The position numbers and the translations under genes are program-made. A DNA stretch of 57,642 nucleotides from an uncultured Candidatus Saccharibacteria bacterium (GTDB lineage Bacteria; Patescibacteriota; Minisyncoccia; Portnoybacterales; UBA2143): NCBI GenBank assembly GCA_964594155.1, contig CAZQLH010000004.1, positions 1-57,642 on the forward strand, in the 5' to 3' direction. The notes beneath the pieces are model-generated. The model was not told the origin of the DNA. It worked only from the letters and a program-made list of their open reading frames with translations, and did no database searches. Positions 8,017 to 49,207 of this stretch are shown here, in pieces (position 1 is the first letter of the stretch; each line of letters starts with the position of its first letter).

Positions 8017-8038
8017 TTTTTATATTAAGATAAAGAAA

Positions 8039-31970: not shown

Positions 31971-33563
31971 ATGAAAAAGAAAAAAGCTTTTCAAGTTATT
32001 GTTTTGATTTTTTTGCTGGCTTGGTATGGCTTTTTTTTATTACACAAAATTGATTTAACCACAGCTGATTTAGGACGTCATATTAAAAACGGAGAAATGG
32101 CCTTAAAAGGAGATTTTGGGATTTTAGGATCTAATTTTTATTCATATACAGAGCCGGATTTTCCAGTCGTTAATCATCATTGGGCCAGCGGAGTAATCTT
32201 TTATTTTATTTGGAAAATAGCTGGTTTTACTGGCCTTTCTTTTTTTTATTTTATCTTGAGCTTGTTTATTTTTTACTTATTTTTTCGCTTAGCTGAAAAA
32301 GAGTCCAGTTTTAATATTGCTGCTTTTGTTTCTTTGTTAGTTATTCCTTTAATTGCCCAAAGAACTGAAATCAGGCCAGAGATATTCAGTTATCTTTTTA
32401 TGGCTTTGTTTTTTTGGATTCTTTGGCATTGGCAAAATGGAAAATTAGACAGCAAATGGCTTTTTATATTGCCAGCTTTAGAGTTTTTTTGGGTTAATAC
32501 TCATATCTATTTTGTTTTTGGCTTTGGTTTAATAGGATTGTTTTGGCTAAAAAGCGTTTTTAAGACTTTTCTTGTAAAGAAAAGAATATCTTTAACGCTT
32601 TCAAAGGTATTAGCTTTAACTGTTTTAGCAGCTTTAATTAATCCTTTTACCTGGAAAGGATTAATTTATCCTTTTAATATTTTCAGGAATTATGGTTATC
32701 GGATTGTGGAAAATCAATCAATTTGGTTTTTGGAGAATTTAGGCATTATTAACAATCCTAATCTGCTTCTTTTTAAGATTGTTTTCATAATTCTTGTTTT
32801 AAGCTTTGTTTTGGTTTTAATAAAGAATCGCGAGTCGTTTTCCCCGACGTCCTTTGAGTCGGGATCCCGACCTTGCGTCGGGACATTCATTTATTTCTGC
32901 TTAGCGATTCTTTTTAGTATTATGGGCTGGTTTGCTATTCGCAATTTCACAATTTTTGGTCTTTTTGCTTTGTTAATAATCTGTTTTAATATTAAAAATG
33001 GATTAGGAGAAAAGATTAAAATCAGGTCTTTTAATATTAAATTAACTTTTGTTTTTTTATGCTTAGCTATTTTTTTAATTGGTTTTACAGTTTATTCTCA
33101 AAAGCTTCCTTTGAATAAACATATGCTTGGTTTTGGATTAGTGCCAGAAAATAATAAGTCAGCTGAATTTTTTAAGGAAAAAAATATTCAAGGGCCTGTG
33201 TTTAATAATTATGATATTGGCGGCTATCTAATCTTTCATCTTTATCCTCAAGAAAAGGTTTTTACTGATAATCGGCCAGAAGCCTATTCAGTTTCTTTTT
33301 TTGAAGATATATATATTCCTGCCCAGCAAAATGATTCTGTTTGGCAGGAACAAATGGAAAAGCATAATTTTAACAGCATTTTCTTTATGCACAGGGATTA
33401 CACTCCCTGGGGACAAAGGTTTTTAATTGAACGAGTTAAAGATCCTGATTGGGCAGTAGTCTATTACGACTCCTTTGCCATTATTTTTCTCAAAAGAAAT
33501 GATTTAAACCAGTCAGTTATTAAAGATTATGAGATTCCTCAATCATATTTTAGAACTTATTAA
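31971..33563 (+). CDS. Multi-pass membrane protein (GT-C-like, uncharacterised)
   Basis: DLGRHI..G, WVNHHW-like, RPEIFS, WVNTH, INPF, FNNYDIGGYLI and DNRPEAY; about 11 hydrophobic segments. Confidence 0.6.
   Translation: MKKKKAFQVIVLIFLLAWYGFFLLHKIDLTTADLGRHIKNGEMALKGDFGILGSNFYSYTEPDFPVVNHHWASGVIFYFIWKIAGFTGLSFFYFILSLFIFYLFFRLAEKESSFNIAAFVSLLVIPLIAQRTEIRPEIFSYLFMALFFWILWHWQNGKLDSKWLFILPALEFFWVNTHIYFVFGFGLIGLFWLKSVFKTFLVKKRISLTLSKVLALTVLAALINPFTWKGLIYPFNIFRNYGYRIVENQSIWFLENLGIINNPNLLLFKIVFIILVLSFVLVLIKNRESFSPTSFESGSRPCVGTFIYFCLAILFSIMGWFAIRNFTIFGLFALLIICFNIKNGLGEKIKIRSFNIKLTFVFLCLAIFLIGFTVYSQKLPLNKHMLGFGLVPENNKSAEFFKEKNIQGPVFNNYDIGGYLIFHLYPQEKVFTDNRPEAYSVSFFEDIYIPAQQNDSVWQEQMEKHNFNSIFFMHRDYTPWGQRFLIERVKDPDWAVVYYDSFAIIFLKRNDLNQSVIKDYEIPQSYFRTY
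32841..32884. repeat. 44-bp double-hairpin CCCGAC element, in-frame
   Basis: 37/44 identical to the reverse complement of 37996-38039. Confidence 0.85.
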
Positions 33564-33566
33564 TCT

Positions 33567-33595
33567 TTGACAATTAAGATATTTCTTGGTAATAT
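33567..33595 (+). promoter_or_regulatory. Sigma70 promoter of iscS (leaderless geometry)
   Basis: TTGACA, 17 bp, TGnTAATAT; ATG 6 nt downstream. Confidence 0.65.
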
Positions 33596-33601
33596 ATTGT
33601 A

Positions 33602-34783
33602 ATGAAGAAAAAAGAAATTTATCTTGATAATTCAGCTACAACATCGGTTGACCCGGCTGTTTTTAAAAAAATGCAGCCGTATTTTTATCAAGAATACGGC
33701 AATCCTTCATCTGTTCATAAGTTAGGCGAAAGATCCCGTAAAGCAATGGAAAAAGCTCGCGAACAATCAGCTGATTTTTTAAATTGCCTTGATGAAGAAA
33801 TATATTTTACTGCTGGAGCAACTGAAAGCAATAATTGGCTGATTTACGGAGTAATTGATAAAATCGCGGAAGAGGGTTCAGTTAAGCCGCATATTATCAT
33901 TTCTGCTTTTGAGCATAAGTCAGTTATTGAGCCAGCAAAGAATTTAGAAAAGAATGACTTGGCTGAGCTAACTCTTTTGACAGTTAGCAAAGATGGATTG
34001 GTTGAATTAGAAGTTCTAAAAAAAGCAATTAAGAAAAATACCAGATTGATTTCAATAATGTATGCTAATAATGAAGTGGGTACTGTTCAGCCGATTAGAG
34101 AAATAGGCAAGCTAATTAAAGAAATTAATCAGAAAAGAAAACATAAAATCATTTTCCACACTGACGCAGTTCAGGCAATTAATTACCTTGATTGCAATGT
34201 TGATTCCCTGGGAATAGACGCCTTATCTCTTTCCAGCCATAAGATTTACGGGCCTAAAGGAGTAGGCATCTTATACCTTAAAAAAGGAATACAAATTAAT
34301 CCTTTAATTCAAGGAGGCGGGCAGGAAAGAAATATGAGATCAGGCACAGAGAATATAGCAGGCATAGTTGGCTTGGGCCAAGCATTAAAAAGAATTAAGT
34401 CTTTAGATTCTAATCAAAGCATTAAAAAATTAAGGAACAAATTAATCACTGGTATTTTAAAAGATATTCCTGATTCGCAGGTAAATGGTTCCATGGAATA
34501 TCGTTTGCCTAATAATGCTCATATTAGCTTTAAGGGAGCAGAAGGCGAAAGCATTGTTATGGCTTTATCGCAGAAAGGCATTTTTGCTTCTACTGCTTCA
34601 GCTTGCGCCAGTCGTTCTCTAAAACCTTCCTATGTCCTATTAGCCATTGGCTTATCTCCAGAACAAGCTCATTGCAGCGTTCGTTTTTCTTTGGGCAGAT
34701 GGACAACTAATCAAGATATAGAATATGTTTTAAAGATTCTGTCAGATATTATTAAAAGATTAAGGAAAATATCAGGGAAATAA
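33602..34783 (+). CDS. iscS: Cysteine desulfurase
   Basis: YLDNSATT, GNPSS.H, AGATESNN, EH.SV, ANNEVG, HTDAVQA, SSHKIYGPKG, RSGTEN and STASAC. Confidence 0.93.
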   Translation: MKKKEIYLDNSATTSVDPAVFKKMQPYFYQEYGNPSSVHKLGERSRKAMEKAREQSADFLNCLDEEIYFTAGATESNNWLIYGVIDKIAEEGSVKPHIIISAFEHKSVIEPAKNLEKNDLAELTLLTVSKDGLVELEVLKKAIKKNTRLISIMYANNEVGTVQPIREIGKLIKEINQKRKHKIIFHTDAVQAINYLDCNVDSLGIDALSLSSHKIYGPKGVGILYLKKGIQINPLIQGGGQERNMRSGTENIAGIVGLGQALKRIKSLDSNQSIKKLRNKLITGILKDIPDSQVNGSMEYRLPNNAHISFKGAEGESIVMALSQKGIFASTASACASRSLKPSYVLLAIGLSPEQAHCSVRFSLGRWTTNQDIEYVLKILSDIIKRLRKISGK

Positions 34784-34787
34784 AAAT

Positions 34788-36308
34788 ATGTATACTAAAA
34801 AAGTTATTGATCACTTTCAAAAACCTAAGAATATGGGTAAGATGAAAAACCCAGATATTGTATCTGAGGTTGGTAATCCAACCTGCTTACTTCCTAGTGA
34901 AAAAGTTTTCCTTAACCCTGAATTTACAGCAATAAAAAACACAGATAAGAAAGATTTGATTTTTTCTCATGATGCTTCAAGAAATAAAATTATTGGTAAA
35001 AGTTCAAGAAATTACAAAGGAAAAATAATTGAGTTTAAGAATGCCTTGGGTAAAATATCTTTAACACCAGAACATCTTATTTATGCTTTAAAACTTCCTA
35101 AGCATTCTAAGTATTTTAGGATAAAACATAAACAAGAATTAATTCCTGCTTGGTATCATGCAGAATATTTAAAAAAAAGAGATGTAGTCCTTTATCCTAT
35201 TTCTAAAGAAGTAAGAGATATAAAATATATTGAAATTGATATTTCTAAGAAAAAGTTCGATTTTAAAAGCATTGATATTCCTAAAAAAGTTAAATTGAAT
35301 TCTGAGTTATTAAGATTATTTGGCTATTTTTTAAGTGAAGGCAATATTCAAGATAAACCTAGTAAAACATATATTTCGTTTAGTTTGAATATAAAAGAAG
35401 AAGATATAGTAGAAGATATTAAAAAAACATCTAAAAGATTATTTGGATTAGATGTAAAAATAAAGGAAATTCCAGAAAGAAAAGTAGTTAGAGTATTTAT
35501 TTATAATGCTCAATTAGCAAGATTTTTTAAACAATTATTTGGAAATGGCGCAGAGCATAAAAAAATTCCTGATTTTATTATGACTCTTCCTTTAGGTAAG
35601 CAAAAATCATTAATAAAGGGATTTTGGAAAGGCGATGGTTATATTAATTTGGATAGGATTGGATCAAGAGCTGGATATGCAACAATTTCATATCATTTAG
35701 CTCAACAAATAAAACTACTTTTAATAAGGCAAAAAATTATCCCTTCAATATATGAAGAAAAAGAAAAAGAAGTCAATGGAGTAAAACATAAAAAAGCTTA
35801 TAGAATACATGTAGGACATAGAGATTCATTGAAAAAGTTGTGTAAGATTTTAGGAATAAAATATTATTCCAATAGTTCTTATAAAGCAACTATTTCTTGG
35901 TTTGATAATAAATTTTTATACACCCCTATAACTAAAATAAGCAAAAGAAATTATAAAGGAAAAGTCTATAATTTAGAAGTTGAAAATACACATTCTTTTT
36001 TATCAGAAGCTTTTGCGCTTCATAATTGCGGCGATACAATGCGCCTTTATCTTAAAATTAAGGATAATATAATAAAAGACATTTCTTTTGAAACAATGGG
36101 TTGCGTAGCAGTCATATCAACTTCATCAATGATTACTGAAATGGCTAAAGGTAAAACACTTGATCAAGCAATGAAAATTTCATATAATGATGTAGCTGAA
36201 GAATTGGGCAAGTTGCCGCCTATTAAAATGCATTGCGCTGGCTTAGCAGTAGAAGCTTTGCAAAAAGCAATTAAAAATTATGGCTGTTCCAAAACAAAGA
36301 CACACTAA
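34788..36308 (+). CDS. iscU: Fe-S scaffold IscU/NifU interrupted by an intein (125-aa extein)
   Basis: YTKKVIDHFQKPKNMG...GNPT | CGD.M.LYLKI...F.T.GC..AI.TSS...K.HC..LA; downstream of iscS. Confidence 0.92.
   Translation: MYTKKVIDHFQKPKNMGKMKNPDIVSEVGNPTCLLPSEKVFLNPEFTAIKNTDKKDLIFSHDASRNKIIGKSSRNYKGKIIEFKNALGKISLTPEHLIYALKLPKHSKYFRIKHKQELIPAWYHAEYLKKRDVVLYPISKEVRDIKYIEIDISKKKFDFKSIDIPKKVKLNSELLRLFGYFLSEGNIQDKPSKTYISFSLNIKEEDIVEDIKKTSKRLFGLDVKIKEIPERKVVRVFIYNAQLARFFKQLFGNGAEHKKIPDFIMTLPLGKQKSLIKGFWKGDGYINLDRIGSRAGYATISYHLAQQIKLLLIRQKIIPSIYEEKEKEVNGVKHKKAYRIHVGHRDSLKKLCKILGIKYYSNSSYKATISWFDNKFLYTPITKISKRNYKGKVYNLEVENTHSFLSEAFALHNCGDTMRLYLKIKDNIIKDISFETMGCVAVISTSSMITEMAKGKTLDQAMKISYNDVAEELGKLPPIKMHCAGLAVEALQKAIKNYGCSKTKTH
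34884..36026 (+). mobile_element. 381-aa intein with LAGLIDADG homing endonuclease
   Basis: Starts CLLP (C1), block B LTPEH, LFGYFLSEG and IKGFWKGDG motifs, block F VYNLEV, ends LHN followed by Cys+1. Confidence 0.93.
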
Positions 36309-36561
36309 ATCAAGAAGAAATAAAAGACGTTCACACCATGCTTTGAAAAAGAAAGCGCTTTTTACTTGTCCAAAATGCAAAGAACTTGTTTTGCCTCATC
36401 GGCTTTGTCAAAGCTGCGGAACTTATGCTGGTCGAGAAATAATTGATGTTTTATCTAAATTAAATAAAAAAGAGCGGAAGAAAAGAGAAAAAGAAATGGC
36501 TGAGCAGGAAAAAGAACAGGTTAAAGAAAAAGAATTAAGCATGCAAGAACTTTCAAAATAA
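36280..36561 (+). CDS. rpmF: 50S ribosomal protein L32
   Basis: [23 protein letters not shown]...PHR.C..CG.Y; charged C-terminal extension. Confidence 0.95.
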
Positions 36562-36574
36562 TAAACTTATAATT

Positions 36575-37012
36575 ATGGCTAATCGTCACTTATCCCGTTC
36601 CATTGCCATGCAATCTCTTTATGAGTGGGATTTTAAAGGAAAAGATCCTGCTAAACTAAAAGAGTTTGTTGATAAGAATATTAAGGAATTTGGCCCAGGC
36701 ATAGAAGAAAGCGATTTTATCTGGCAAATAGTTAATGGTGTTATTGAAAATCTTGCCAAGTTAGACAAAATTATTGAAAAATCTGCTCCTGAATGGCCTT
36801 TGGACCAAATTACTATTGTTGATCGCAATGTTTTAAGAATCGGCCTTTACGAACTTCTTTTTGCAGACCGCAAAGAAGTTCCTCCTAAAGTAGCTATTAA
36901 CGAAGCTATTGAATTAGCCAAATCTTTTGGCGGCGAATCATCAAGCAAATTTATTAATGGAGTTTTAGGAACAGTTTATCGGGAAATTGGCGAACCAGGC
37001 AAAGACGAATAA
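36575..37012 (+). CDS. nusB: Transcription antitermination factor NusB
   Basis: [33 protein letters not shown] and FINGVLG. Confidence 0.93.
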
Positions 37013-37016
37013 ATCA

Positions 37017-37706
37017 ATGAATAACTTATCTTCTCTTGAAAAAATAATTAAAATAGATTTTAATAATAAAGATTTGCTTCAGCAGGCGTTTGTTCATCGT
37101 TCATATTTGAATGAGAATCCAGAATTTCATTTAAAAGACAATGAAAGACTTGAATTTTTAGGCGATGCTGTGTTAGAAATGGTAGTAACAGAATACCTTT
37201 ATCAGTTATATCCTAATTCAGAAGGAGAATTGACCAATTGGCGAGCAGCTTTAGTTAATGCTAAGATGCTGGCTAAAATTGCTGATAAGATTAAATTAAA
37301 TAATTATTTGCTTTTAAGCCGCGGAGAAGCAAAGGATACTGGCCGAGCCAGACAATATATTTTAGCTAATGCTTTTGAAGCATTAATCGGAGCAATCTAT
37401 TTAGACCAAGGATATGAAAAATCTTATCAGTTTATTAAAAGAGAAATCTTAAAAGAATTGCCAGAAATTATTAAACAAAAGCTTTATCAGGACCCTAAGA
37501 GCGAATTTCAGGAAAAAGCCCAGGACAAGGTTGGAATAACCCCGTCTTATGAGGTTATTAAAGAATGGGGGCCAGATCATGCCAAGAATTTTATTATTGG
37601 AGTTTATCTTGACAAAGAATTAGTTGCTAAAGGACAGGGCGTTTCTAAACAAGAAGCGCAGGAAAAAGCAGCCCAAGCAGGTTTAAAAGAGAAAGGCTGG
37701 AATTAA
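37017..37706 (+). CDS. rnc: Ribonuclease III
   Basis: AFVHRSY, NERLEFLGDAVL, ANAFEALIGAIYLD and dsRBD DPKS.FQE...GPDH.K.F; start moved to ATG 37017. Confidence 0.95.
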   Translation: MNNLSSLEKIIKIDFNNKDLLQQAFVHRSYLNENPEFHLKDNERLEFLGDAVLEMVVTEYLYQLYPNSEGELTNWRAALVNAKMLAKIADKIKLNNYLLLSRGEAKDTGRARQYILANAFEALIGAIYLDQGYEKSYQFIKREILKELPEIIKQKLYQDPKSEFQEKAQDKVGITPSYEVIKEWGPDHAKNFIIGVYLDKELVAKGQGVSKQEAQEKAAQAGLKEKGWN

Positions 37707-37707
37707 T

Positions 37708-38115
37708 ATGCTAACTATCCGCTTAATTAGAATAGGTAAAAAAAACGCTTCTAGTTTTAGAATTGTTTTAATTGAGAAAAAAGCCGCCCCTCAAAGCGGA
37801 AAGTTTTTAGAAGTTTTAGGCCACTATAATCCAAGATTATCTGCTAAAAATGGAAAAGAAATTAATCTAAAAGAAGATCGGATAAAATATTGGCTGTCTC
37901 AAGGAGCTCAAACTTCTAAAACAGTTCATAATTTATTGGTTAAAAAAGGAGTTATTAAAGGGCCTAAGATTAAAAAGAATATTAAAACAAAAAAAGTCCC
38001 GATGCAAGATCGGGATCCCGACCCAGAAGGCGTCGGGAAAAAACCTGAAAAAAAAGAAAAACCTGATAAGAAAGAAACAAAAGAAAAAAAAGTTGACAAA
38101 CCGCCAAAAGTATAA
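37708..38115 (+). CDS. rpsP: 30S ribosomal protein S16 with Lys-rich extension
   Basis: LTIRLIRIGKK...FRIV, G..LE.LG.YNP and YWLSQGAQ.S.TV. Confidence 0.93.
   Translation: MLTIRLIRIGKKNASSFRIVLIEKKAAPQSGKFLEVLGHYNPRLSAKNGKEINLKEDRIKYWLSQGAQTSKTVHNLLVKKGVIKGPKIKKNIKTKKVPMQDRDPDPEGVGKKPEKKEKPDKKETKEKKVDKPPKV
37996..38039. repeat. 44-bp double-hairpin CCCGAC element, in-frame in rpsP tail
   Basis: GTCCCGATGCAAGATCGGGATCCCGACCCAGAAGGCGTCGGGAA; inverted relative to 32841-32884. Confidence 0.85.
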
Positions 38116-38207
38116 TAAAATATAAGGAGAGTGGCAGTCAAATTCAGAAAGAAAGGTCGGACTGCTATGAATTTTATCAGAAAAAAACTAAGACTAAGTT
38201 AAGAATT

Positions 38208-38549
38208 ATGGCTAAGAACACAGATCAGGATTTCTTAGAGTTTGTTGTCAAGTCCATAGTTAACAATGCTAATGATGTTAAAATCACTAGAACTGTTGAT
38301 GAAATGGGGGTTTTGCTAAACCTCAAGGTTAACCCAGAAGATATGGGTCAAATTATTGGACGACAGGGCTCTACTGCTCGGGCAATTCGAACTATTTTAA
38401 GGGTTATTGGCGTTAAGAATAATGCTAGAATTAACCTTAAGATTGAAGAGCCAGAAGGCGGCAGAGTTACAGCTCCAAGAGAAACAGCTGCTTCTAAAGA
38501 AGAACCTAAAAAAGGCGTTGATGAAGTAGTTGATGAATTAAAACTGTAA
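38208..38549 (+). CDS. khpA: KH domain RNA-binding protein
   Basis: L.V.PEDMGQIIGRQG.TARAIRTIL; follows rpsP as in many genomes. Confidence 0.85.
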   Translation: MAKNTDQDFLEFVVKSIVNNANDVKITRTVDEMGVLLNLKVNPEDMGQIIGRQGSTARAIRTILRVIGVKNNARINLKIEEPEGGRVTAPRETAASKEEPKKGVDEVVDELKL

Positions 38550-38616
38550 GATTATTGTTTTTACAGAATCGCAAAGACTGTGCCACTCTATATAGGCGCG
38601 GTTTTTGTATTTGAAT

Positions 38617-39282
38617 ATGCAATTCGACATTATTACAATTTTTCCAAAGATCTTTGATTCATATTTTAATGAATCCATTATTAAGCGAGCCCAGCAAAAA
38701 AAGCTGGTTAAAATTAATATTCATAATTTGCGTGATTACACCCTTGATCGGCATAAAACAGTGGATGATCGGCCTTATGGCGGAGGTTCAGGCATGGTTT
38801 TAATGGTTGAGCCAATTAAAAAAGCTGTAAAAGATATTAAAAAGATTTACCCCGCCAGCCGGGGCAAGAAAAATAAAATTATTCTTTTATCTGCTAAAGG
38901 AAAAAAGCTTGATCAAAAAATGGCTCGTGAATTTTCCAAATTAGACCAACTAATCTTAGTTTCCGGACGCTACGAAGGAGTTGATGAAAGAGTAGCTAAA
39001 TATATTGCTGATCAAGAAATTTCAATCGGAGATTATGTTTTAACTGGCGGCGAGCTGCCAGCTATGGTTTTGGTTGATGCAGTAACCCGGCTGATTCCAG
39101 GGGTAATTGCCAAAGAATCTTTAAAAGAAGAAAGTTTTTCTAAGGGTAAAAATATTGAATATCCCCATTATACTAGGCCGGAAAGCATAAGGATTAATGG
39201 AAAAGAAAGAAAGGTTCCTAAGGTATTATTATCTGGTGATCACAAGAAAATTGAAAAGTGGCGGAGGAAACATAGCAATTAG
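38617..39282 (+). CDS. trmD: tRNA (guanine-N1)-methyltransferase
   Basis: [42 protein letters not shown] and EYPHYTRP. Confidence 0.96.
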
Positions 39283-39523
39283 TAATTGGCAAATGTGGAT
39301 AATTGTCTTGGTATCTATTTGTGTACATATTATCATTCGATTATAAAGCCTCCTGTGCCCGCTTGCGGTGTGCATGATTTTTTATTTTATGATATAATAC
39401 TGGCAAGAATTAGTTGCATTGTTTATATATCCGATAGAGACTTTGTTTTTAGTAGATTGGGTGAGAAATCACGAGCGTAAGAATATTAAATTTATTTGGG
39501 ATATTCTAGTTAAATTTAAAATT

Positions 39524-41473
39524 ATGCAAGAAAAAATTTTATTACCAGAACAATTCATTAAACAAAAAAAACTCATAGAAGAAAAGAAGCAGAACAAAGA
39601 AATTGTTGATCATTTACAATTTTTAATTGAAAACGATCAAAACGTAAATGACAATTTTTATATTGACAGGCAAAAACAAGTTAAAGAAAAAATCAACAAC
39701 CAGATTAAAGAGATAAAAAATATAAGCTATGAAAAAGTTGTTAATATTCATTTAAGATATAGACTCGCGCAAAATATTTTATCTCAAATTCCCTGTGCTT
39801 CAGAATTGACAGACAGATTGGAAATTCGTAACAATGAATCACAAAATAAAATAATAAAGCATACTGATAAATATGATATAAATTTACCTGAAAAGAATAA
39901 TGAGTTTAAACAAAATAGTGAAGAAATTTTTCAAGAATTAAATGAAGCCGTTGACAAGCAAGGCAAAATTGCTGAAACTTTACAAGATTTATTAGTATCT
40001 GACGATGAATTCAGGGAAGAATATATAGAACTTCTTAATCAGGCTAGTAAAAATTTAAGTGCCAAAGAAAGGGGGAAAGATATATTAGCGTTAAATAAAG
40101 CAGAAGAAGTTTTAACAGGGTTGCCTTTTTCTTCTAAGTTTTTAGGCCAAATAACAGAATTAAAAGAAAAAATTGAGCAAATAAATCAAGAAGAGAAAGA
40201 GGTATTGGAAGAACGAGTTGATTGGGAAATATTGCCGGCAGGAGAAAAACCTATTGGTTTATTTGCACCCAAAAATAAGCATGAAAATGAATGGAATGAC
40301 TTAAAGAACGAGGAGAGATTAGAATATATTAAGAATTTAGGTCCAGATGCAATATATAGTATGGCAAGTCCTGTTATGGGCAGAGATTATGAGATGTATC
40401 AATTTTCTAATTGTATTGTTTTGGCTTCTGTTTGGGCAAGACATGCGGTTTATATCATGCCAAAGGAAAATTTAAAAGAATTGGCGCAAAAGGATAAAAT
40501 GGAATTAAAATTTCGCGGGGCGATACAGCTTAAAAATATTCCAGGATGGCAAGAAAAATTAGAAAATATTCTTACAGGCGATATTAATATTGAAGTTGAT
40601 TTGGATAAATCTTATCAGCCAAGAATCCAAGAATCTTGGGGAGACGACCCAGAAAAATGGAAACAAAAAGTGCGTAATGCTATTTTTTTGGAATACCCTG
40701 AAATTGCATTAACAATTAAGCAAGGCGACAATGATCGGGCCAAACAATTGCTAAAAAATATTTTAAGTCAAGACATGTCCAGAATGCGAATTTCAACTGC
40801 TATTTGGAAATTTGGTAGCCGCGGTAACGCTTTAATTAATTCTTTTCTAGAGGCAAAACTAACTAAAGAGGATTTTCCTGTTAAAAAATATAAATGGAAG
40901 AATGCGACCAAAGAAAAAAAGAGGCAAAATATAAGAAATGCAATATCCGAAAATTTACCCGAAGTAGATCAAGCAATAAAAAATGGCGAATTAGAAGAAG
41001 CGGCTGAATGGTTGTCAATACTTAAGGATGAAGATTTTAAATCAAAAGCATTTGGTTTAGGATATATCGCGAGTGGTAAAGATAATTATCTTCGCACTAG
41101 AAAAGTAGCTCTGATAAAAAGTTATCCCGAATTAAAAAATCTTAAGGATTTATTTAGAAAAGGCAGAAGATATAAAGATAAAAATGAAAAATTAGAAAAG
41201 TGGGGCGAAAGATTTAGAAATGTATTATTAGAACAAGTTTTTGATTTAGAAAATACGGTAAAAAGTGGCAATCTTAAACAAGCCAAGTTATTAATTTTAA
41301 AAACATTAAATGAAGCTGGGGCGTCAAATTTTGTCGACAAGCACATTAAAAGCATTAGAGGGGTGAAAGAAATCTCGGAGATGGAAATATCAGGATGTAG
41401 GAGGTATTTAATGTTAGCATTTCCGGAAATTAGTTGGTCGGATATAAGTTTTCAAAAAGGGCCTAGAAAATAA
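39524..41473 (+). CDS. Hypothetical protein with three C-terminal helical repeats
   Basis: Long open frame; start moved to ATG 39524; repeated W..K..IRNAI.E..PE...IK.G...A units. Confidence 0.7.
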   Translation: MQEKILLPEQFIKQKKLIEEKKQNKEIVDHLQFLIENDQNVNDNFYIDRQKQVKEKINNQIKEIKNISYEKVVNIHLRYRLAQNILSQIPCASELTDRLEIRNNESQNKIIKHTDKYDINLPEKNNEFKQNSEEIFQELNEAVDKQGKIAETLQDLLVSDDEFREEYIELLNQASKNLSAKERGKDILALNKAEEVLTGLPFSSKFLGQITELKEKIEQINQEEKEVLEERVDWEILPAGEKPIGLFAPKNKHENEWNDLKNEERLEYIKNLGPDAIYSMASPVMGRDYEMYQFSNCIVLASVWARHAVYIMPKENLKELAQKDKMELKFRGAIQLKNIPGWQEKLENILTGDINIEVDLDKSYQPRIQESWGDDPEKWKQKVRNAIFLEYPEIALTIKQGDNDRAKQLLKNILSQDMSRMRISTAIWKFGSRGNALINSFLEAKLTKEDFPVKKYKWKNATKEKKRQNIRNAISENLPEVDQAIKNGELEEAAEWLSILKDEDFKSKAFGLGYIASGKDNYLRTRKVALIKSYPELKNLKDLFRKGRRYKDKNEKLEKWGERFRNVLLEQVFDLENTVKSGNLKQAKLLILKTLNEAGASNFVDKHIKSIRGVKEISEMEISGCRRYLMLAFPEISWSDISFQKGPRK

Positions 41474-41540
41474 AGATTAAATTACGCAGACTAATGTTTT
41501 ATCGTGAGAAAAACGCCAAAATGTATGTCTGTTAAAAATT

Positions 41541-42008
41541 ATGGGAGAATTAATACAATTTGGCGACTTTAAGAAAAAAGAATCCTTAAAGTTAAAAAAT
41601 AATGTAAATGAGCAAAAAGCTGGCGACTCAACAAGTAAGAACGAATCAGTTGCTTTGAAAGTCGCTCCGAAGGAAGAAAAAACTGAAAATATTGACAGTC
41701 CTTATGTCGAAATTGATAAACCTAAAGAAGAATTAATTTTGCAAATTAAAAAATCCTCAATTCAATTGAATAAAGAAACTATTTCAAACGCGCAAAAACA
41801 TTTTGATGGATGGACAAATACTGAAATAGCAGAATTTATTAACAATACCGATGAGTCAATGATCAAGAAAAAACCAAGCTTCTTTATTTATGCGTATAAC
41901 AAAATGCGATCAAAAGATTCTATGATTAAATTATCACCAGAAGATATGAATCCAATAAAAGATGGCAAAGATTCTCGTGAAAAGTTTTTTGATGATTTTT
42001 TTAAATAA
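41541..42008 (+). CDS. Hypothetical protein
   Basis: 155-aa charged ORF with no recognisable motif. Confidence 0.6.
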   Translation: MGELIQFGDFKKKESLKLKNNVNEQKAGDSTSKNESVALKVAPKEEKTENIDSPYVEIDKPKEELILQIKKSSIQLNKETISNAQKHFDGWTNTEIAEFINNTDESMIKKKPSFFIYAYNKMRSKDSMIKLSPEDMNPIKDGKDSREKFFDDFFK

Positions 42009-42195
42009 ATTGCTAAAATTATTAAAGCGAAGAATGTTTTTTATTGCTTTTCTGCTTTTGTTTTAATCATACTGCGTTTGAGCTCTATTTTATTTTTCTC
42101 AGGACACATAAAATATCCTTAACATCTTTGCGGCTAATGATATTACAAATTATCCTATCAAAATGTTTAACTATGCACCCGTCAGGTACACAAGG

Positions 42196-42242
42196 TTGAC
42201 AGCGGATTTGGGATAATATAGAATAATAATGTTCTTTGAAAA
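42196..42242 (+). promoter_or_regulatory. rRNA promoter and boxA-like element
   Basis: TTGACA, 17 bp, TAGAAT (42219-42224); TGTTCTTTGAAAA at about 42230-42242. Confidence 0.7.
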
Positions 42243-42524
42243 TAGAATAAGAAATTAAACAATTGCAATTTTGTGCAGTTGTCCCAAATTATTTTTATTG
42301 AGAGTTTGATCCTAGCTCAGGATGAACGCTGGCGACGTGGATAAGGCATGCAAGTCGAACGACCCCGAGTTTATCGAGGGGTAGTGGCGAACGGGTTAGT
42401 AATACGTAGGGATCTACCCTGAAGTCTGGAATAACTTGGAGAAATCTAAGTTAATACCAGATAGTCCCGCAAGGGTAAAGTTCCCCGCAATACTGCGGGG
42501 TTGCGCTTCAGGAGGAACCTGCGC

Positions 42525-42564
<40 letters not shown>

Positions 42565-42790
42565 TGACGGGTAGGGGGAGTGAGAGCTTGACCCCCAACA
42601 ATGGGACTTAGACAAGGCCCATACACCTACGGGTGGCAGCAGTCAAGAACCTTCCACAATGGGCGAAAGCCTGATGGAGCGACGTCGCGTGAATGAAGAC
42701 GCTCTTCGGAGTGTAAAATTCTTTTCTAGAGGAACAATTTTGGCTTGCCAAAATGAGCGTACTTTAGGAATAAGGGGCGGCTAACTTCGT

Positions 42791-43710
42791 GCATTGGCGC
42801 GACCTCTGACGGTAACGTCAGAGAGAGAATCTAGTGCTAAGCTCGCACTAGAGAGAAACTCGGCTTATATGCTGGAACCCATTTATTTGATATTTAAAAT
42901 AAATGGCAATCAGCAGGGAAGTCGTTTATAATGGAAGTATGAGATCGTTAAATACAAATCTAATTTCTAAAACCCAACAAAAGATTATTATTGGTAATAT
43001 CTTAGGAGATGGGTCTTTAGAATTTAATGGATTTCGTGGAACACGATTACAGATAAAACAATCATTGAGATATAAAGAATATGTATTTTGGTTGTATGAT
43101 CAATTAAAAGACCTTTGTATTTCTAGTCCAAAACAGAGAAAAGACAATGATCAATGGTACTTTAGTACAAAATATTTAGCAGAATTAACTATTCTTCATA
43201 GAATTTTCTATCCTAATGGTAAAAAAGTAATTCCTAAAGATATTTCGAAATTACTTATTTCACCACTAACTTTGGCAATTTGGTATATGGACGATGGTTC
43301 ATTATACTGGCGGCCAAAAGAACATAATGGTTTTAGATTATGTACTAATTGTTTTTCTGTAAAAGACACACATCGATTAAAAAATGTTTTATATGATAAT
43401 TTTGGCATAGAATCTACAGTTCAAAGAACTTCATGTAGAGGCAAAAATTATCCTAGAATATATATTGGAGTAGCAGGTAGAAATAAATTTTTGAAAGTTA
43501 TCAAATCATATATATTAAACTGTTTTTCTCATAAATTACCTCCATTATAAATTGACCCTTCAGAGACTGATCCCTTTTATGGGAGAGATAATGGGTTCTG
43601 GATAATCCAGGTTTAAACCATTATCACACGCCGAGCCCCCGTTAAATATTTTTATATTTAATTGGGTGGTGATATAGTCCAGTAGAATTTTATATTATTG
43701 AATTCTATTA
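42791..43710 (+). mobile_element. Group I intron after 16S U516 (920 nt)
   Basis: P1 CGUGC/GCGCG with U-G pair, P10 with GCCA, AATCAGCAGGG, CAGAGACT and GATATAGTCC; exons rejoin as TTCGT|GCCAG. Confidence 0.9.
42939..43550 (+). CDS. Intron-encoded LAGLIDADG endonuclease (two motifs)
   Basis: IIGNILGDGSL and LAIWYMDDGS; ATG 42939 is 6 nt after a TATAAT. Confidence 0.9.
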   Translation: MRSLNTNLISKTQQKIIIGNILGDGSLEFNGFRGTRLQIKQSLRYKEYVFWLYDQLKDLCISSPKQRKDNDQWYFSTKYLAELTILHRIFYPNGKKVIPKDISKLLISPLTLAIWYMDDGSLYWRPKEHNGFRLCTNCFSVKDTHRLKNVLYDNFGIESTVQRTSCRGKNYPRIYIGVAGRNKFLKVIKSYILNCFSHKLPPL

Positions 43711-44083
43711 GCCAGAAGCCTCGGTAATACGAAGGCCCCAAGCGTTATCCGGATTTATTGGGCGTAAAGCGTGTGTAGGCGGTTTTAATAGTGATTGGTT
43801 AAATTCCGAAGCTCAACTTCGGAGCTGCTAGTCAAACGTTAAAACTAGAGCAAGTAAGAGGCTAATGGAACTTACCAAGTAGGGGTGAAATCCGTTGATA
43901 TGGTAGGGAACACCAAAGGCGAAGGCAATTAGCTGGTACTTAGCTGACGCTGAGACACGAAAGCGTAGGTAGCGAACGGGATTAGATACCCCGGTAGTCT
44001 ACGCCGTAAACGATGTCAACTAGCCGTTTGGAGTATCGACCCTCTGAGTGGCGAAGCTAACGCGTTAAGTTGACCGCCTGGGA

Positions 44084-44115
<32 letters not shown>

Positions 44116-44582
44116 AGACGGGGACTTGCACAAGCGGTGGATCATGTGGTTTAATTCGACATTACGCGAGGAACCTTACCAGGACTAGACATCCTGATGA
44201 CCGTTTACCGAAAGGTAGACTTTCTTTAGACATCAGGGTCAGGTGGTGCACGGTTGCCGTCAGCATGTGCCTTGAGGTGCTCCCTTAAATGGGTTAACAT
44301 GCGCAACCCTCGCCCTGTGTTACAAGTGTCACAGGGAACTGCCTCCGGACAGGAGGAGGAAGGCGAGGACGACGTCAAATCAGCGTGTCCCTAGATGTCC
44401 TGGGCGACACACATGATACAATGGTTAGGACAATGGGTTGCCAAACCGCAAGGTGGAGCCAATCCCATCAAACCTAGCCCCAGTTCGGATTGAGGGCTGC
44501 AACTCGCCCTCATGAAGCCGGAATCGCTAGTAATCGCAGATCAGCCACGCTGCGGTGAATACGTTCTCAAGTCTTGTACTCA

Positions 44583-45404
44583 AAAATAAATGTGCCTGGC
44601 AGCTATTATAATGCTAAATTGTTAAAATCAATTCCTCCAATATTTATTGGAGCGTAGCGAACAGACAGGTCTCGCACCGCGAGGTAGAGACTGAAGGGTC
44701 TTAGTAGCAAAAGACAGCCCTGTCATTAAAAGGATTCTTACGACCTATACGGTGAGTTATAGGGAAGTAAGCATAGTTAATAATCCGATAGGGATGCCCG
44801 GAATAGTATAAATAGTGACCCAGGGAGATCTTTGTGATATAATAGAGTTATGTTATGAAGTCACAAAGAAGTCAGCTGCGTCGTAGTAGCTCTAATTCGT
44901 TAGAGCGAAGGACAAAACCGACGGTCTCTCTAGATTATATTGTTGGTCTTACAGATGGCGAAGGATGTTTTTATGTTTGTATTAGACCGCCATACAATAA
45001 GAATGGCGGAGCAATGATTTTACTTTCGTTTTATATCAAGATGCAAGCAAAAGATAAATTTCTTTTAGAGAAGGTTAAAAATACGCTTGATTGTGGAAAT
45101 GTGTATTTCCAGAATGAAAAGCGTCCAAATCATACTCAATGTTATCGCTATACAGTTGCTTCGCATCGTGATATCTTAGGAAAGGTTATTCCATTTTTTA
45201 AGAAATATCCTTTACAAAGTACGAAAGTAAAAAACTTTAATATTTTTTGTAGTATTGCTGAAATGGTTCGCAATGGCGAACATCATAATCAAAAGGGAAT
45301 TGAAAAGATTAGATTATTAAAATCTAAAATGAATCGTCGGGCTCGCTGAGTGCGGGAAATCCGCTCGCTCAGTGGGGATTCGAAAGAACTCTACTTATCG
45401 AAAT
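44583..45404 (+). mobile_element. Group II intron after 16S A1398 (822 nt)
   Basis: Domain V CGCTGAGTGCGG-GAAA-TCCGCTCGCTCAGTG, DVI-like end in AT, GTGCC near the 5' end, EBS loop CGGTGAGT complementary to the spliced junction ACTCA|CCG. Confidence 0.8.
44855..45349 (+). CDS. Single-motif LAGLIDADG endonuclease in group II intron domain IV
   Basis: YIVGLTDGEGCF, F.I.M...D..LL..VK..L.CG.V, VIPFF.KYPL...K...F..F; stop codon lies inside domain V. Confidence 0.9.
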   Translation: MKSQRSQLRRSSSNSLERRTKPTVSLDYIVGLTDGEGCFYVCIRPPYNKNGGAMILLSFYIKMQAKDKFLLEKVKNTLDCGNVYFQNEKRPNHTQCYRYTVASHRDILGKVIPFFKKYPLQSTKVKNFNIFCSIAEMVRNGEHHNQKGIEKIRLLKSKMNRRAR

Positions 45405-45685
45405 CCGCCCGTCATATTAGGGAAGTCGGTAGTACCCGAAGTCTCTTCATTAGAAGGGCCTAAGGTAAGATCGGTGACCAGAATAAAGTCGTAACAAGGC
45501 ATGCGTAGCGGAAGCTGTGCATGGATCACCTCCTTTCTATATATTTAATATATATGGGGTGTCGATACAGGTTGAGATATAGAATTCTTATCTCAACTCG
45601 TGGGTATTGGTCTTGGAGCCCTAAATTAAGACCTGATAGTTCTAATGAACTTCATTTGGGACAACTACACGAGATTGCAACAGGA

Positions 45686-45711
45686 AATACTTGCTTTGGC
45701 AGGTGTTTTTT
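45686..45711 (+). terminator. Terminator-like hairpin between 16S and tRNA-Ile
   Basis: AATACTTGC-TTTG-GCAGGTGTT followed by T run. Confidence 0.5.
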
Positions 45712-45730
45712 GATAGGATTGTTAATAGTC

Positions 45731-45804
45731 GGGCGTATAGCTCAGTTGGTTAGAGCGCATCTCTGATAAGGATGAGGTCCTTGGTTCGAATCCAAGTACG
45801 CCCA
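45731..45804 (+). tRNA. tRNA-Ile(GAT)
   Basis: Acceptor GGGCGTA/TACGCCC, anticodon loop CTGATAA, T-loop GTTCGAA. Confidence 0.95.
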
Positions 45805-45906
45805 CAAGGTTATCCACAGGCATATTGTGGATTTTTTTGTTACAATATAGGTAGTAAAATTATCTTGAAAAAACTTAGCTTATAATGAAAGGGGGTGAAA
45901 AATGGA

Positions 45907-46587
45907 ATGGTTATTCAAACATGGACAGAAGTGGTAACAGCTTCTCTTCAAACACTCTGGTCTGGTTTTATTGGTTTTTTGCCAAATCTGTTAGGGGCAA
46001 TTATAGTTTTTATTATTGGTTGGATAATTGCTGTTCTTTTAGGCAAGTTGGCTTCTCAGATTATCAGAACTTTAAGAGTTGATCAGGTTTTAGAGAAGAT
46101 GGGTTTTAAGAAGAGTTTTGAAAGAGCTAATTTAAAGTTGGACTCAAGCATGTTTTTTGGCGAATTAGTGCGATGGTTCTTTATTATCGTCTTTTTAATG
46201 GCTGCTACTGATATTCTTGGTCTTTACCAAGTAACAGAATTTCTAAGAAGGGTTCTTCTTTATATTCCTCAGTTAATTGTTGCTGTTTTGATTTTATTAG
46301 CTGCTGTATTGATTGCTAGTTTTATGCAAAAACTTGTTAAGGCTAGCGTGGAAGCAGCTGGTTTTGGAGCATCTAATTTTTTAGCAACATTAACTAAATG
46401 GAGTATCCTGGTTTTTGCTGGTTTGGCTGCTTTGTTGCAATTAGGTATTGTTCCGTCTTTAATTCAAACCATCTTTACGGGAGTAATAGCTGCCTTTGTT
46501 GTTGCATCTGGCTTAGCTTTTGGACTAGGAGGAAAGGATTTTGCAACTGAGGTTCTTGGCAAGATAAAAAGAGACATTTTAGGATAA
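45907..46587 (+). CDS. TM-helix-repeat membrane protein (mechanosensitive-channel/CmpX-like) inside the rRNA spacer
   Basis: Repeated FLP.L.GA.I.FIIGW and YIPQLIVAVLIL units, A.GLAFGLGGKD; SD-like GGGGGTG upstream of ATG 45907. Confidence 0.82.
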   Translation: MVIQTWTEVVTASLQTLWSGFIGFLPNLLGAIIVFIIGWIIAVLLGKLASQIIRTLRVDQVLEKMGFKKSFERANLKLDSSMFFGELVRWFFIIVFLMAATDILGLYQVTEFLRRVLLYIPQLIVAVLILLAAVLIASFMQKLVKASVEAAGFGASNFLATLTKWSILVFAGLAALLQLGIVPSLIQTIFTGVIAAFVVASGLAFGLGGKDFATEVLGKIKRDILG

Positions 46588-46646
46588 ACTTTAAGAGGAT
46601 TATATAAATTAATTGAAAAATCCGAGATCTTTCGGTTGTTATGGTA

Positions 46647-46675
46647 TTGACATAGATTAGGAATAAATATAATAT
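46647..46675 (+). promoter_or_regulatory. Separate promoter upstream of 23S
   Basis: TTGACA, 17 bp, TAATAT. Confidence 0.65.
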
Positions 46676-46688
46676 TATATATATAGAT

Positions 46689-46730
46689 ATGAATAAACTA
46701 AAAAGATCATTATACATAGAAAGCGGTTAA
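46689..46730 (+). CDS. Possible 13-aa leader peptide MNKLKRSLYIESG
   Basis: Short ORF just after the promoter; last codons GAAAGCGGT are complementary to the terminator 5' arm. Confidence 0.3.
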   Translation: MNKLKRSLYIESG

Positions 46731-46763
46731 TAACTGTCTATTTGTTATTTGTCTCTGAAATGA

Positions 46764-46787
46764 AGACCGCTTTCAAGCGGTCTTTTT
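46764..46787 (+). terminator. Intrinsic terminator in the 23S leader
   Basis: AGACCGCT-TTCA-AGCGGTCT then TTTT. Confidence 0.7.
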
Positions 46788-48983
46788 AGTTTAATAGGGC
46801 AATTAGGATAGTTTTTTGACAATTAGGAAAAGTAGTTTTTCCGTCAATAGTAAAATTGGAAAAGTAATTTGTCTAAATTTTTAGTGGTAAAATTTAGACG
46901 GATAAATATTAAGGGCCTGTGACGGATGCCTTGACATAAAGAGCCGATGAAGGACGTGGTGTGACTGCGATAAGCCTCGGGAAGGTGTCTAACAACCTTT
47001 GATCCGGGGATGTCCGAATGGGGAAACCTAATTTTGCGATAAACAAAATTAGCCTGGTCGAATGACTGGGCAGGGAACTCGGGGAAGTGAAACATCTCAG
47101 TACCCGGAGGAAAAGAAAATAAGTCCCGACGTAAAGTCGGGAAATATTCCCTAAGTAGCGGCGAGCGAAAAGGGAAAAGCCCAAACTTATTTTATTTAAT
47201 TTATTAAGTAAGATGAGGGTTGCAAGGTAGTAACGCTCTGAAGCGTCCCTTGGTTGCTTTAAAGTAACTAAAGGATGTCTCAGAAGAAGTTTATTAAATA
47301 AAGGCTGGTTAATTGAATCTTGCTGGAAAGCAGAACCAAAGAGGGTAATAGTCCCGTAAGTGAAAATTCCTTTATGCTTCTAGTTATTATTCTTAAGTAC
47401 CTCGGGACCAGACTATCCCGTGGGAAGCTGGCAGTCCTATGCTGCCAAGGCTAAATACTCTTTATGATCGATAGCGCACCAGTACCGTGAGGGAAAGGTG
47501 AAAAGTAGCCCGTTGAGGGCGGTGAAATAGAACCTGAAATCATGGGCCTACAAAGAGTCGGAGCCCCGATTACGCTTGCGTAATCGTGGGTGACGGCGTG
47601 CTTTTTGCAGAACGAGCCAACGAGTGTATGTAAACGGCTTGTTTAAGTCCGTTAAGGACGGAGACATAGTGAAAGCGAGGATTAATAGTCCGTCCCGACT
47701 TTACGTCGGGGTAGTCGTTTGTATACGACCCGAAGCCAGAGCGAGCTAACCATGGCCAGGATGAAATCTCGACGAAAGTCGGATGGAGGTCCGCACCCAC
47801 TAACTGTGCAACGTTAGGGGATGAGCTGTGGTTAGAAGTGAAAAGCTAATCGAGCCTGGTAATAGCTGGTTCTTCCCGAAATAGCTTTAGGGTTAGCTCT
47901 CTGTTAATGTCTTAGGGGGTAGAGCACTGGATGGGATATGGATGGGTTCGTCCCGCCTATCTCAATCAAACTCCGAATACCTATAATTTCTGCGAAGGAG
48001 TCAGACTGTGGGGGCTAAGCTCCATGGTCAAAAGGGAAACAGCCCAGACTGTCGTCTAAGGTCCCTAAATCAAACTAAGTGGGAAAGGAAGTGAAGTTTC
48101 TCTGACAGCTAGGAGGTTGGCTTAGAAGCAGCCATCCTTTAAAGAGTGCGTAACAGCTCACTAGTTCAGAGATTTTGCGCCGAAGATTTAACGGGGCTAA
48201 AGTTTGATACCGAAGACACAGCTGTCCATCTTTTAGATGGGCGGGGTAGGGAAGCGTTCTCTAATGCGTTGAAGTCCACGACGTGAGTCGGGATGGAGTT
48301 TAGAGAAGTGAGAATGTTGGCATAAGTAACCACAAATCCGGTGAGATACCGGATCGCCGAAAACCCAAGGTTTCCTTGGCAATGAACATCAGCCAAGGGT
48401 TAGGCGGGCCTAAGTTGCGGCCGCGATAAGCGGTCAGTAGCGATGGACAGACGGTTAATATTCCGTCCCCTCAGTATTTTTTCGATGAAAGGACGAGGTT
48501 TAGTAGCTTGAGCGTCTTATTGGATTGTCGTTCTTGGCTTAAGAGCGCTGGTTAGGCAAATCCGGCCAGCATCAACTCAAGAGTTGAGAAAAGGTTTTTC
48601 TACGGAATAACCAATTCAAGTGAGCAGGCCTCCAAGAAAAGTTTCTAGAGTTAAGGATATTGAGTCCGTACCGTAAACCGACACAGGTGGGTAGGTCGAG
48701 TAGACCAAGGCGAACGAGTGATTCCTTGTGAAGGAACTCGGCAAAACAGCGGGTGTAACTTCGGGATAAACCCTGCCATTATCACTTGTGATATTGGCCG
48801 CAGCGAAAGATTCCTGACGACTGTTTATCAAAAACACAGCTCCCTGCTAACTCGCAAGAGGATGTATAGGGGGTGACGCCTGACCAATGCTAGAAGGTTA
48901 ACGTTTGACGTCTTTCTCTTCGGAGTTAGGCGAAAGGCCGAAGCCCTAGTGAATGTCAGCGATAACTATAATCGTTCTAAGGT

Positions 48984-49207
48984 GAATTAGTTGCCTTAGT
49001 AAAATTCGGCTATATGCTGGAATAGCTGTGTATCTTGAGCTACTCATAATATGAGTAACAATGCTACAAGTGCAGCCAATCAGCAGGGAAGTCTTAGTGA
49101 CCCCTCAGAGACTACACGCCGAACTCTGTAATATTACAGGGAAGATATAGTCCGATCTTTATAGCGATATAAAGAAGTCTTGAGCGAATCAAGACGATAA
49201 CAGCTTG
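48984..49207 (+). mobile_element. Group I intron after 23S U1931 (224 nt, no ORF)
   Basis: P1 AAGGU/GCCUU, AATCAGCAGGG, CAGAGACT, AAGATATAGTCC, terminal G; exons rejoin as CTAAGGT|AGCGAAA. Confidence 0.9.

Follow-up and report, generated by a model that had tools for sequence, protein, structure and literature searches.

A 42-nt double-hairpin mini-element in protein and structural RNA genes of Patescibacteria

Among the Rickettsia palindromic elements (RPEs), RPE-1 is about 100–150 bp long. RPE dimers encoding 20–30 residues are common, and the short RPE-4 and RPE-6 are intragenic CGTC repetitive extragenic palindromes (REPs), with a CGTC tag, 8–9-bp stems starting with AT and a CCA tail (PMC3733652). 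Another group of hairpin repeats, NTS/SRM, is paired with the Ssn GIY-YIG single-strand nucleases (Chenal et al. 2025, PMC11893778), and the SRM repeats follow the pattern HGTCWYN(0-2)YYVSBRHN(0-5)WNVSBRGN(0-2)RNCYNB (PMC11893778). Here we analyse a family of CCCGAC...GTCGGG hairpins in a 57,642-nt stretch of DNA from an uncultured Patescibacteria genome (contig CAZQLH010000004.1, referred to below as the window), where they lie in two protein genes, in the 23S rRNA gene and in the gene for RNase P RNA. These hairpins are very likely copies of a very small, non-autonomous, selfish DNA element that would be moved in trans by a nuclease. Literature searches on the element, on its 14-mer core and on GIY-YIG proteins with Patescibacteria found no description of the element.

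Anatomy, abundance and distribution of the element

The window is contig C4 of a genome of 629 kb in 20 contigs with about 33% G+C (hereafter G000). The window contains six matches to the pattern CCCGAC-N3-12-GTCGGG, where 100 dinucleotide-preserving shuffles predict 0.00, and a genome-wide search found 25 such hairpins in G000, the runner-up GC-rich stem class having four. The copy number is thus above chance, which agrees with the original prediction, made from the letters of the window, that these hairpins form one family. The basic unit is a 19–23-nt module, T-CCCGAC-(5–9 nt loop)-GTCGGG-A, which forms a perfect hairpin, and the intact paired unit consists of two abutting modules of 19 and 23 nt, giving 42 nt or 14 codons. 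The consensus of the double hairpin, Y-CCCGAC-GCAAG-GTCGGG-AT-CCCGAC-CCAGAAGGC-GTCGGG-R, is bordered by AG and AAA and has no unpaired tag. The 14-mer at the junction, GTCGGGATCCCGAC, is a perfect palindrome in itself, each of the two modules folds as predicted in RNA folding, and the consensus contains no stop codon in any of the six frames. A profile made from the copies recovered 13 paired copies in G000, of which 11 are intact and two decayed, as well as single hairpins in the 23S rRNA gene (two), in the RNase P RNA gene rnpB and at C2:736. Pairing is kept despite variants in the inner stem of hairpin 2 (CC..GG versus TC..GA) and a compensated change, CCCGAT/ATCGGG, in hairpin 1 of the copy in the gene for ribosomal protein S16. 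No Rfam family matched at the element sites at gathering thresholds, and the matches obtained were to rRNA, rnpB, tRNAs and introns only.

Two of the paired copies lie in the window. The first occupies positions 32842–32883 on the minus strand and lies in frame in a 530-residue membrane protein without a Pfam family (31971–33563, plus strand), where it is read as SPTSFESGSRPCVG; its RNA is predicted to fold into two hairpins with an energy of -22.5 kcal/mol. The second, at 37997–38038 on the plus strand, lies in frame in the Lys-rich C-terminal tail of S16 (rpsP, 37708–38115, plus strand), outside the Pfam S16 domain at residues 8–70, and is read as VPMQDRDPDPEGVG. The two had been described beforehand as inverted copies of one in-frame double hairpin, and the reverse complement of 32841–32884 is indeed identical to 37996–38039 at 37 of 44 positions; the length first assigned, 44 bp, needs correction to 42 nt. 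In the DNA run X1, short-read contigs covering window positions 37930–38045 end at the element and one of them joins the S16 copy to the flank of the copy in the ribosomal protein L18 gene; a repeat of this length is thus sufficient to tangle assemblies.

An exact scan of one genome per species for CCCGAC-N5-GTCGGGATCCCGAC, which specifies 20 bases, found the double hairpin in at least 116 stretches of DNA from many Patescibacteria lineages. The matches listed come from Nomura-, Jorgensen-, Gottesman-, Roizman-, Falkow-, Magasanik-, Uhr-, Doudna-, Zambryski- and Buchananbacteria, among others, and include some metagenome-assembled genomes (MAGs) labelled Omnitrophota, Gammaproteobacteria or Planctomycetes. 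The commonest form among these listed matches is CCCGACGTAAAGTCGGG-AT-CCCGAC-CGAAGC-GTCGGG, with loops of hairpin 2 that vary and are sometimes long, and the genus of the window has its own 42-nt subfamily. In a Candidatus Uhrbacteria MAG (locus L205, 713–1151) a double-hairpin copy lies inside a predicted tmRNA gene. Of the copies among the matches listed, 111 could be parsed for a test of frame filtering: the length is divisible by three in 24 of 35 copies in open reading frames (ORFs) of at least 200 residues versus 21 of 53 copies outside ORFs (less than 100 residues; Fisher p = 0.0095). The bias towards frame preservation in coding sequence, proposed in the original prediction as a check, is thus found among these matches.

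Copies in protein genes and their empty sites

All 13 paired copies in G000 lie within long ORFs, in both orientations and in three reading frames, in which they would be translated as VPTQGRDPDPEGVGK (seven copies), as SRRKVGIPTQKTSGK (four) or, from the reverse strand, as SPTSFESGSRPCVGT (two). Because its six frames are free of stops and its length is a multiple of three, the element can be read through in whichever frame it lands. A function at the level of the peptide was rejected, as the three frames give three unrelated peptides. According to Pfam, the hosts are the ribosomal proteins L18, S9, L7/L12, S12 and S16, RpoB, NusA (two copies), GatB, SSB and a T2SSE-type ATPase (pilus/secretion), to which are added a PD-(D/E)XK-like (nuclease-like) ORF and the membrane protein of the window. 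When compared with the Pfam domain boundaries, the inserts of S9, L7/L12, S12, S16, SSB and NusA site 2 fall in N- or C-terminal extensions, that of the ATPase falls in the linker between its MshEN and T2SSE domains, and those of L18, the NusA N-terminal domain and GatB (between its Cys pairs) fall in expanded loops. The sites are surrounded by Lys, with a mean of 4.1 per 20 residues versus 2.0 genome-wide (p = 0.002), and the 60 nucleotides that flank them are A-rich (p = 0.0004). An excess of intragenic copies is not demonstrable from the absence of intergenic ones (0 of 13), since p = 0.21 at a coding density of 88.6%.

Nine of the host sites in G000 were aligned at the DNA level to G001, a relative of the same genus. 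The membrane protein gene of G001 has a clean 42-bp empty site (tttt^catt) without target duplication. Its S16 ortholog is 42 nt shorter at the element site, a clean 42-bp gap, so the comparison of rpsP orthologs suggested in the original prediction did reveal an empty site. G001 is also shorter at the sites in L7/L12 (30 nt), L18 (27 nt), S12 (36 nt) and RpoB (12 nt), and at these a short A-rich stretch stands in place of the G000 element. At NusA site 1 and in SSB, G001 carries decayed copies of the element, which indicates older, shared insertions. In GatB, the 11-residue net insert is absent from the orthologs of 29 relatives, among them G001 with 89% identity. At the ATPase linker site of G001 (locus L062) lies a different GC hairpin, CCCCGCC-N-GGCGGGG, which is also present at a few places in G000, for example C2:59617 and C3:33450, and which may be another module family.

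Because of the empty sites in the membrane protein and S16 genes of G001 and the absence of the GatB insert from 29 relatives, the interpretation of the protein-gene copies as recent DNA-level insertions is well supported by sequence comparison. The original prediction had argued for DNA-level insertion of all the hairpins; this stands for the protein-gene copies, where the use of three reading frames also speaks for it, and does not extend to the hairpins in rnpB and at 23S position 47125, which occupy native helix positions. Its argument from opposite orientations is a weak one, because the arms are mutually reverse-complementary and the RNA of either strand therefore has the same CCCGAC/GUCGGG stem, differing in the loop alone. 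At most sites the local sequence has been replaced rather than cleanly added to, as it would be if each palindrome had arisen anew by template switching or hairpin-primed repair. Such an origin is nevertheless highly improbable, because the copies have non-palindromic parts in common, namely the loops, the linker AT and the sequence in which the two unlike hairpins follow each other, which local template switching cannot produce.

Within the family, the junction 14-mer occurs 11 times in G000, nine times in G016, five times in G008, once in each of five other genomes and in none of 25 others. The copies in G016 and G008 are likewise within ORFs, again in NusA, S9 and S12, and in NusA at least they differ from those of G000 in position or frame, which indicates that the same tolerant regions were struck independently. 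G016 also contains a composite in which one element is nested in the loop of hairpin 1 of another. Copies are gained and lost between close relatives and enter protein genes without target duplication. The paired version, two abutting modules of 42 nt, is the form that spread through the G000 genome, and the survivors are found mainly in linkers, tails and loops of housekeeping proteins.

Modules in structural RNAs and their transcripts

The 23S rRNA gene of the window contains two single modules. The first, TCCCGACGTAAAGTCGGGA (47124–47142, plus strand), forms the tip of a variable 23S hairpin (site 1), and the second (47693–47711, minus strand) lies in another variable region (site 2) and is the exact reverse complement of the module at 47125. 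The hairpins proper, CCCGACGTAAAGTCGGG at 47125–47141 and CCCGACTTTACGTCGGG at 47694–47710, are exact reverse complements of each other, just as had been described from the window. In the Rfam LSU alignment, site 1 comprises 20 nt versus 2 in the bacterial consensus. An alignment of 23S sequences from 12 genomes (G000 and 11 relatives) places a hairpin at site 1 in all 11 relatives, with sequences other than the module, such as TCCTGAC-TTTAA-GTCAGGA in G018 and CCCGA-T7-TCGGG in G020. At site 2 about half of the relatives have an unrelated hairpin and the others have nothing. A third 23S site is occupied by a full double hairpin in G016 and G006 and is empty in the other ten aligned genomes.

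A module-like hairpin, TCCCGAC-GGTAAC-GTCGGGG (7913–7932, plus strand), caps the hairpin located after GCTCGCTTGA in RNase P RNA (7626–8017), and its core at 7914–7931, CCCGACGGTAACGTCGGG, is as previously reported. In relatives this helix has a GNRA-type loop and different covarying stems. The module at C2:736 lies between two same-strand genes, within a longer, terminator-like stem that has a T run after it. Taken together, 23S site 1, the C2:736 stem and the nested copies of G016 indicate that modules tend to lie in the loops or at the tips of pre-existing hairpin-forming DNA. Judged from the aligned sequences, the hairpins of rnpB and 23S site 1 seem to have captured or replaced the tip of a helix and not simply to have been inserted: orthologs share the position of the helix at both sites and do not share its sequence, so that the refuting observation named in the original prediction, the same helices in orthologs, applies here to position only.

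The same two sites raise the question whether the rnpB hairpin at 7914 and the 23S hairpin at 47125 are native helices that have drifted to element-like stems, so that only the protein-gene copies would be mobile. The presence of a hairpin in all relatives at both sites is in keeping with drift, and the TCCGAT...ATCGGA of G018 rnpB, together with the 23S site-1 hairpin of the same genome, could be intermediates. We consider drift unlikely, in view of the sequences themselves: the 17-mer at 23S site 1 is identical both to hairpin 1 of the GatB copy and to the commonest hairpin 1 among the matches listed, and its reverse complement forms site 2. Furthermore, an exact copy of the rnpB 18-mer lies within the rnpB match of G039, a member of another family, and is absent from closer relatives, and the rnpB of G019 carries an exact hairpin 1 at another position, one that lacks a hairpin in G000. 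The single modules in structural RNAs lie at the tips of variable helices and are present in rRNA transcripts.

Three metatranscriptome runs (X6, X21 and X22) contain rRNA of this organism; the data are assembled contigs, so that depth is not quantitative and some carry-over of DNA is possible. The module at 23S site 2 is spanned by RNA contigs with 0 mismatches in all three runs, and that at site 1 is spanned by an 83-nt RNA contig in X21 and X22. The X22 contig runs into unlike sequence beyond 47175 and may derive from a related strain. Cleavage of the rRNA at the site-1 hairpin, considered on account of a gap in the X6 RNA, was set aside, as the X21 and X22 contigs cross the site. In X6, two stretches of the 23S gene, at about 48984–49207 and 49228–49477, have zero RNA depth, and joints with sides of only about 20 nt, not found in the DNA runs, bridge them. 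Given these RNA-only joints and the contigs that span the modules, the 23S intervening sequences appear to be removed while the modules remain in the rRNA. The first of the X6 gaps overlaps a match to an Rfam group I intron at 48905–49174. For rpsP, the three metatranscriptomes contain no covering RNA contig.

The presence of modules in rRNA transcripts bears on a further explanation, in which the CCCGAC/GUCGGG stem is a functional RNA or DNA signal, for example a binding or processing site of a conserved Patescibacteria protein, selected in transcripts for translation and transcription, and insertion is secondary. Such a signal would fit the concentration of paired copies in information-processing genes (10 of 13) and of further modules in rRNA and RNase P RNA, as well as the fact that the same RNA stem results from either orientation. 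It would also fit the stems among the matches listed, which are near-invariant over distant lineages while the loops vary, and the compensated stem changes (CCCGAT/ATCGGG and CCCGAG/CTCGGG). We nevertheless regard it as quite improbable. The copies are patchy even within one genus, G001 being without nearly all of those in G000; no copy is at a position conserved over the relatives examined; old copies decay, as in NusA and SSB of G001; and the Lys-rich tails and linkers of information-processing genes also account for the bias towards these.

The 16S and 23S rRNA genes of the window both carry insertions according to Rfam matches, and insertions in rRNA genes are known in Patescibacteria (the candidate phyla radiation, CPR). 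An insertion of about 760 nt interrupts the 16S gene after model position 546 (window 42818–43576), and a match to Rfam group II intron D1-D4 lies directly downstream of the gene (window 44834–44913). At the break of the 16S match, where the insertion starts, is the hairpin CTCTGAC-GGTAAC-GTCAGAG (42804–42823, plus strand). A related loop had been claimed here, at about 42808; the link is unsupported beyond the 12-mer GACGGTAACGTC, which is all that this hairpin has in common with that of rnpB, the CCCGAC stem being absent, and its kinship to the element family is doubtful. Elsewhere in the window (34788–36308), an intein with a LAGLIDADG endonuclease domain splits a NifU/IscU-like scaffold protein, whose ORF matches NifU_N in two pieces, LAGLIDADG_3 and Intein_splicing in Pfam.

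Candidate enzymes and comparison with known systems

The selfish element would move as hairpin-forming, probably single-stranded, DNA by means of a nuclease acting in trans; it would insert preferentially into A-rich tracts and into loops where the DNA is hairpin-forming already, and selection would then purge the copies that break a frame or a fold. The likeliest nuclease may be a domain-only UPF0213-type GIY-YIG protein, which G000 encodes ahead of tRNA-Val and whose gene, elsewhere in Patescibacteria, is often directly beside the element; we propose this with low confidence and regard it as the weakest step of the scheme. G000 has one such gene, at C2:79855–80079 and encoding 86 residues, between tRNA-Ile(TAT) and tRNA-Val(GAC) (region C2:79619–80197), and the nearest solved relatives of its product are UPF0213 proteins (PDB 1ywl and 1zg2). 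About 40 nt upstream of the start of this gene, an imperfect hairpin, CCCCGAGTTAATCGAGGGG, lies between direct repeats GAGCGAA. A small GIY-YIG ORF is present in 13 of the 116 matches listed and lies within 350 nt of the element in eight of the 116, versus about two expected from a rough estimate based on gene density. Loci such as L143 and L159 show the element first, then the nuclease gene and then a tRNA. Across 41 relatives, the number of GIY-YIG genes correlates with the number of hairpins when kinship is ignored (Spearman 0.38, p = 0.013; Fisher p = 0.04).

It is possible, though we would put it no higher than a tentative proposal, that the hairpin module and the domain-only UPF0213-type GIY-YIG nuclease make up an undescribed two-part mobile system of Patescibacteria. 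The nuclease would read the shape of DNA, that is extruded hairpins or single-stranded loops. The autonomous part would be a nuclease cassette that resides in tRNA genes and keeps the tRNA beside it intact, and the 19–23-nt modules would be non-autonomous passengers pasted into hairpin loops (of tRNA, of rRNA and RNase P helix tips, and of terminators) and into A-rich tracts of highly transcribed genes. If true, this would be the third pairing of a hairpin with an enzyme, beside REP/RAYT and SRM/Ssn.

G000 also has a REP-associated tyrosine transposase (RAYT; C2:6264–6596, NF047646, 85 bits). Copies of another repeat family, AAGGAACGTCC / ACGTCCTTAAGGACGT (C2:5400–6700), which has about a dozen loci and no relation to the element, adjoin it on either side. 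A RAYT or Y1 transposase as the driver of the element was rejected, as this enzyme has its own, different flanking repeat and its presence does not track the copy number of the element. The RAYT and the AAGGAACGTCC / ACGTCCTTAAGGACGT repeats form a classical RAYT/REP arrangement in a 629-kb CPR genome.

Several observations weigh against a selfish element moved by this nuclease. Neither a transposition event nor the activity of an enzyme is observed. Clean insertions are seen at only two of the nine sites compared with G001, and the A-rich replacement sites could have arisen by break repair in which sequence was lost, or simply through rapid indel turnover of low-complexity DNA. The hairpins of rnpB and 23S site 1 occupy native helix positions, so that insertion is not demonstrated there, and the near-identity of the stems in very distant lineages could stem from upkeep by a cellular function and not from mobility only. 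As to the enzyme, the correlation between nuclease and hairpin is modest and uncorrected for phylogeny. G000 has the most copies and yet only the one GIY-YIG gene, with no clear CCCGAC module adjoining it; G019 has six hairpins and no GIY-YIG match, and the hairpins are absent from several nuclease-rich genomes.

The occurrence of the element implies that selfish DNA is tolerated in the most conserved genes even of bacteria whose genomes are among the smallest and most streamlined, including rpoB and the genes for ribosomal proteins, 23S rRNA and RNase P RNA. Short-read assemblies are interrupted at the copies, and lineage-specific inserts of 14 residues could be mistaken for adaptive features of ribosomal proteins or rRNA. 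The presence or absence of copies also provides markers for strain tracking. Should the link to the nuclease prove true, it would supply a structure-directed DNA nuclease together with its target, a pair of relevance to mobile elements and to single-strand DNA tools.

Two classes of mobile DNA were excluded. A miniature inverted-repeat transposable element, with terminal repeats and target-site duplication, does not correspond to what is found, the empty site of the membrane protein gene being without duplication. A mini-element derived from IS200/IS605, which would be tied to a Y1 HUH transposase and inserted in a single orientation relative to replication, was rejected because the presence of Y1 does not follow the copy number and because copies in both orientations lie on one contig with positive GC skew over its whole length. 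The element resembles the REPs and REPINs that depend on a RAYT in being a short, GC-rich hairpin that is often paired, and in both the mover is presumably a single-copy enzyme that acts on hairpins in trans. It differs from them in that the GTAG/CGTC tetranucleotide is absent, that the RAYT of G000 adjoins the AAGGAACGTCC family and not the CCCGAC hairpins, and that the paired copies are all intragenic, whereas REPs are mostly extragenic.

The published pairing of Ssn with SRM is the nearest precedent for a link between nuclease and hairpin, in that a small, domain-only GIY-YIG nuclease, in the case of Ssn one of the cd10448 clade, is associated with a genome-wide hairpin repeat and its gene is often beside the repeat. 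Membership of the SRM/Ssn system was rejected at the level of the motif, as the SRM pattern has 0 matches in the G000 genome and 0 in the element consensus. In addition, the copies number in the tens and not in the hundreds, the nuclease gene of G000 is not flanked by the repeat, and the nuclease resembles UPF0213.

Double-hairpin elements of fungal mitochondria were reportedly described by Paquin, Laforest and Lang in 2000, and no enzyme is known for them. The Patescibacteria element shares with these elements and with mitochondrial GC clusters the arrangement of two adjacent, short, GC-rich hairpins in an AT-rich, gene-dense genome, the signs of mobility, and the location in variable rRNA regions, intergenic DNA and protein genes. 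The mitochondrial elements are organellar and their sequences are unrelated, however, so that the likeness is one of form and behaviour only.

The likeness to the RPEs (RPE-1 to RPE-8) lies in the presence of repeated palindromic DNA in frame in known, often essential, genes of a small AT-rich genome, which can be read as an extra peptide segment (here judged from the three frames used and the absence of stops in the sequence) and which also occurs outside protein genes. The differences are that the element belongs to another phylum and occurs in many Patescibacteria lineages, whereas the RPEs are confined to one genus, and that it consists of two unlike hairpins arranged head to tail with AT between them, a total of only 42 nt. 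When compared with the features described for RPE-4 and RPE-6, it has neither the unpaired CGTC tag nor the CCA tail, and its stem is 6–7 bp and GC-rich versus 8–9 bp and starting with AT. Based on these comparisons, the element is best regarded as an in-frame palindromic mini-element of Patescibacteria, whose behaviour matches that of the RPEs and of intragenic REP dimers and whose form matches that of the mitochondrial double hairpins.

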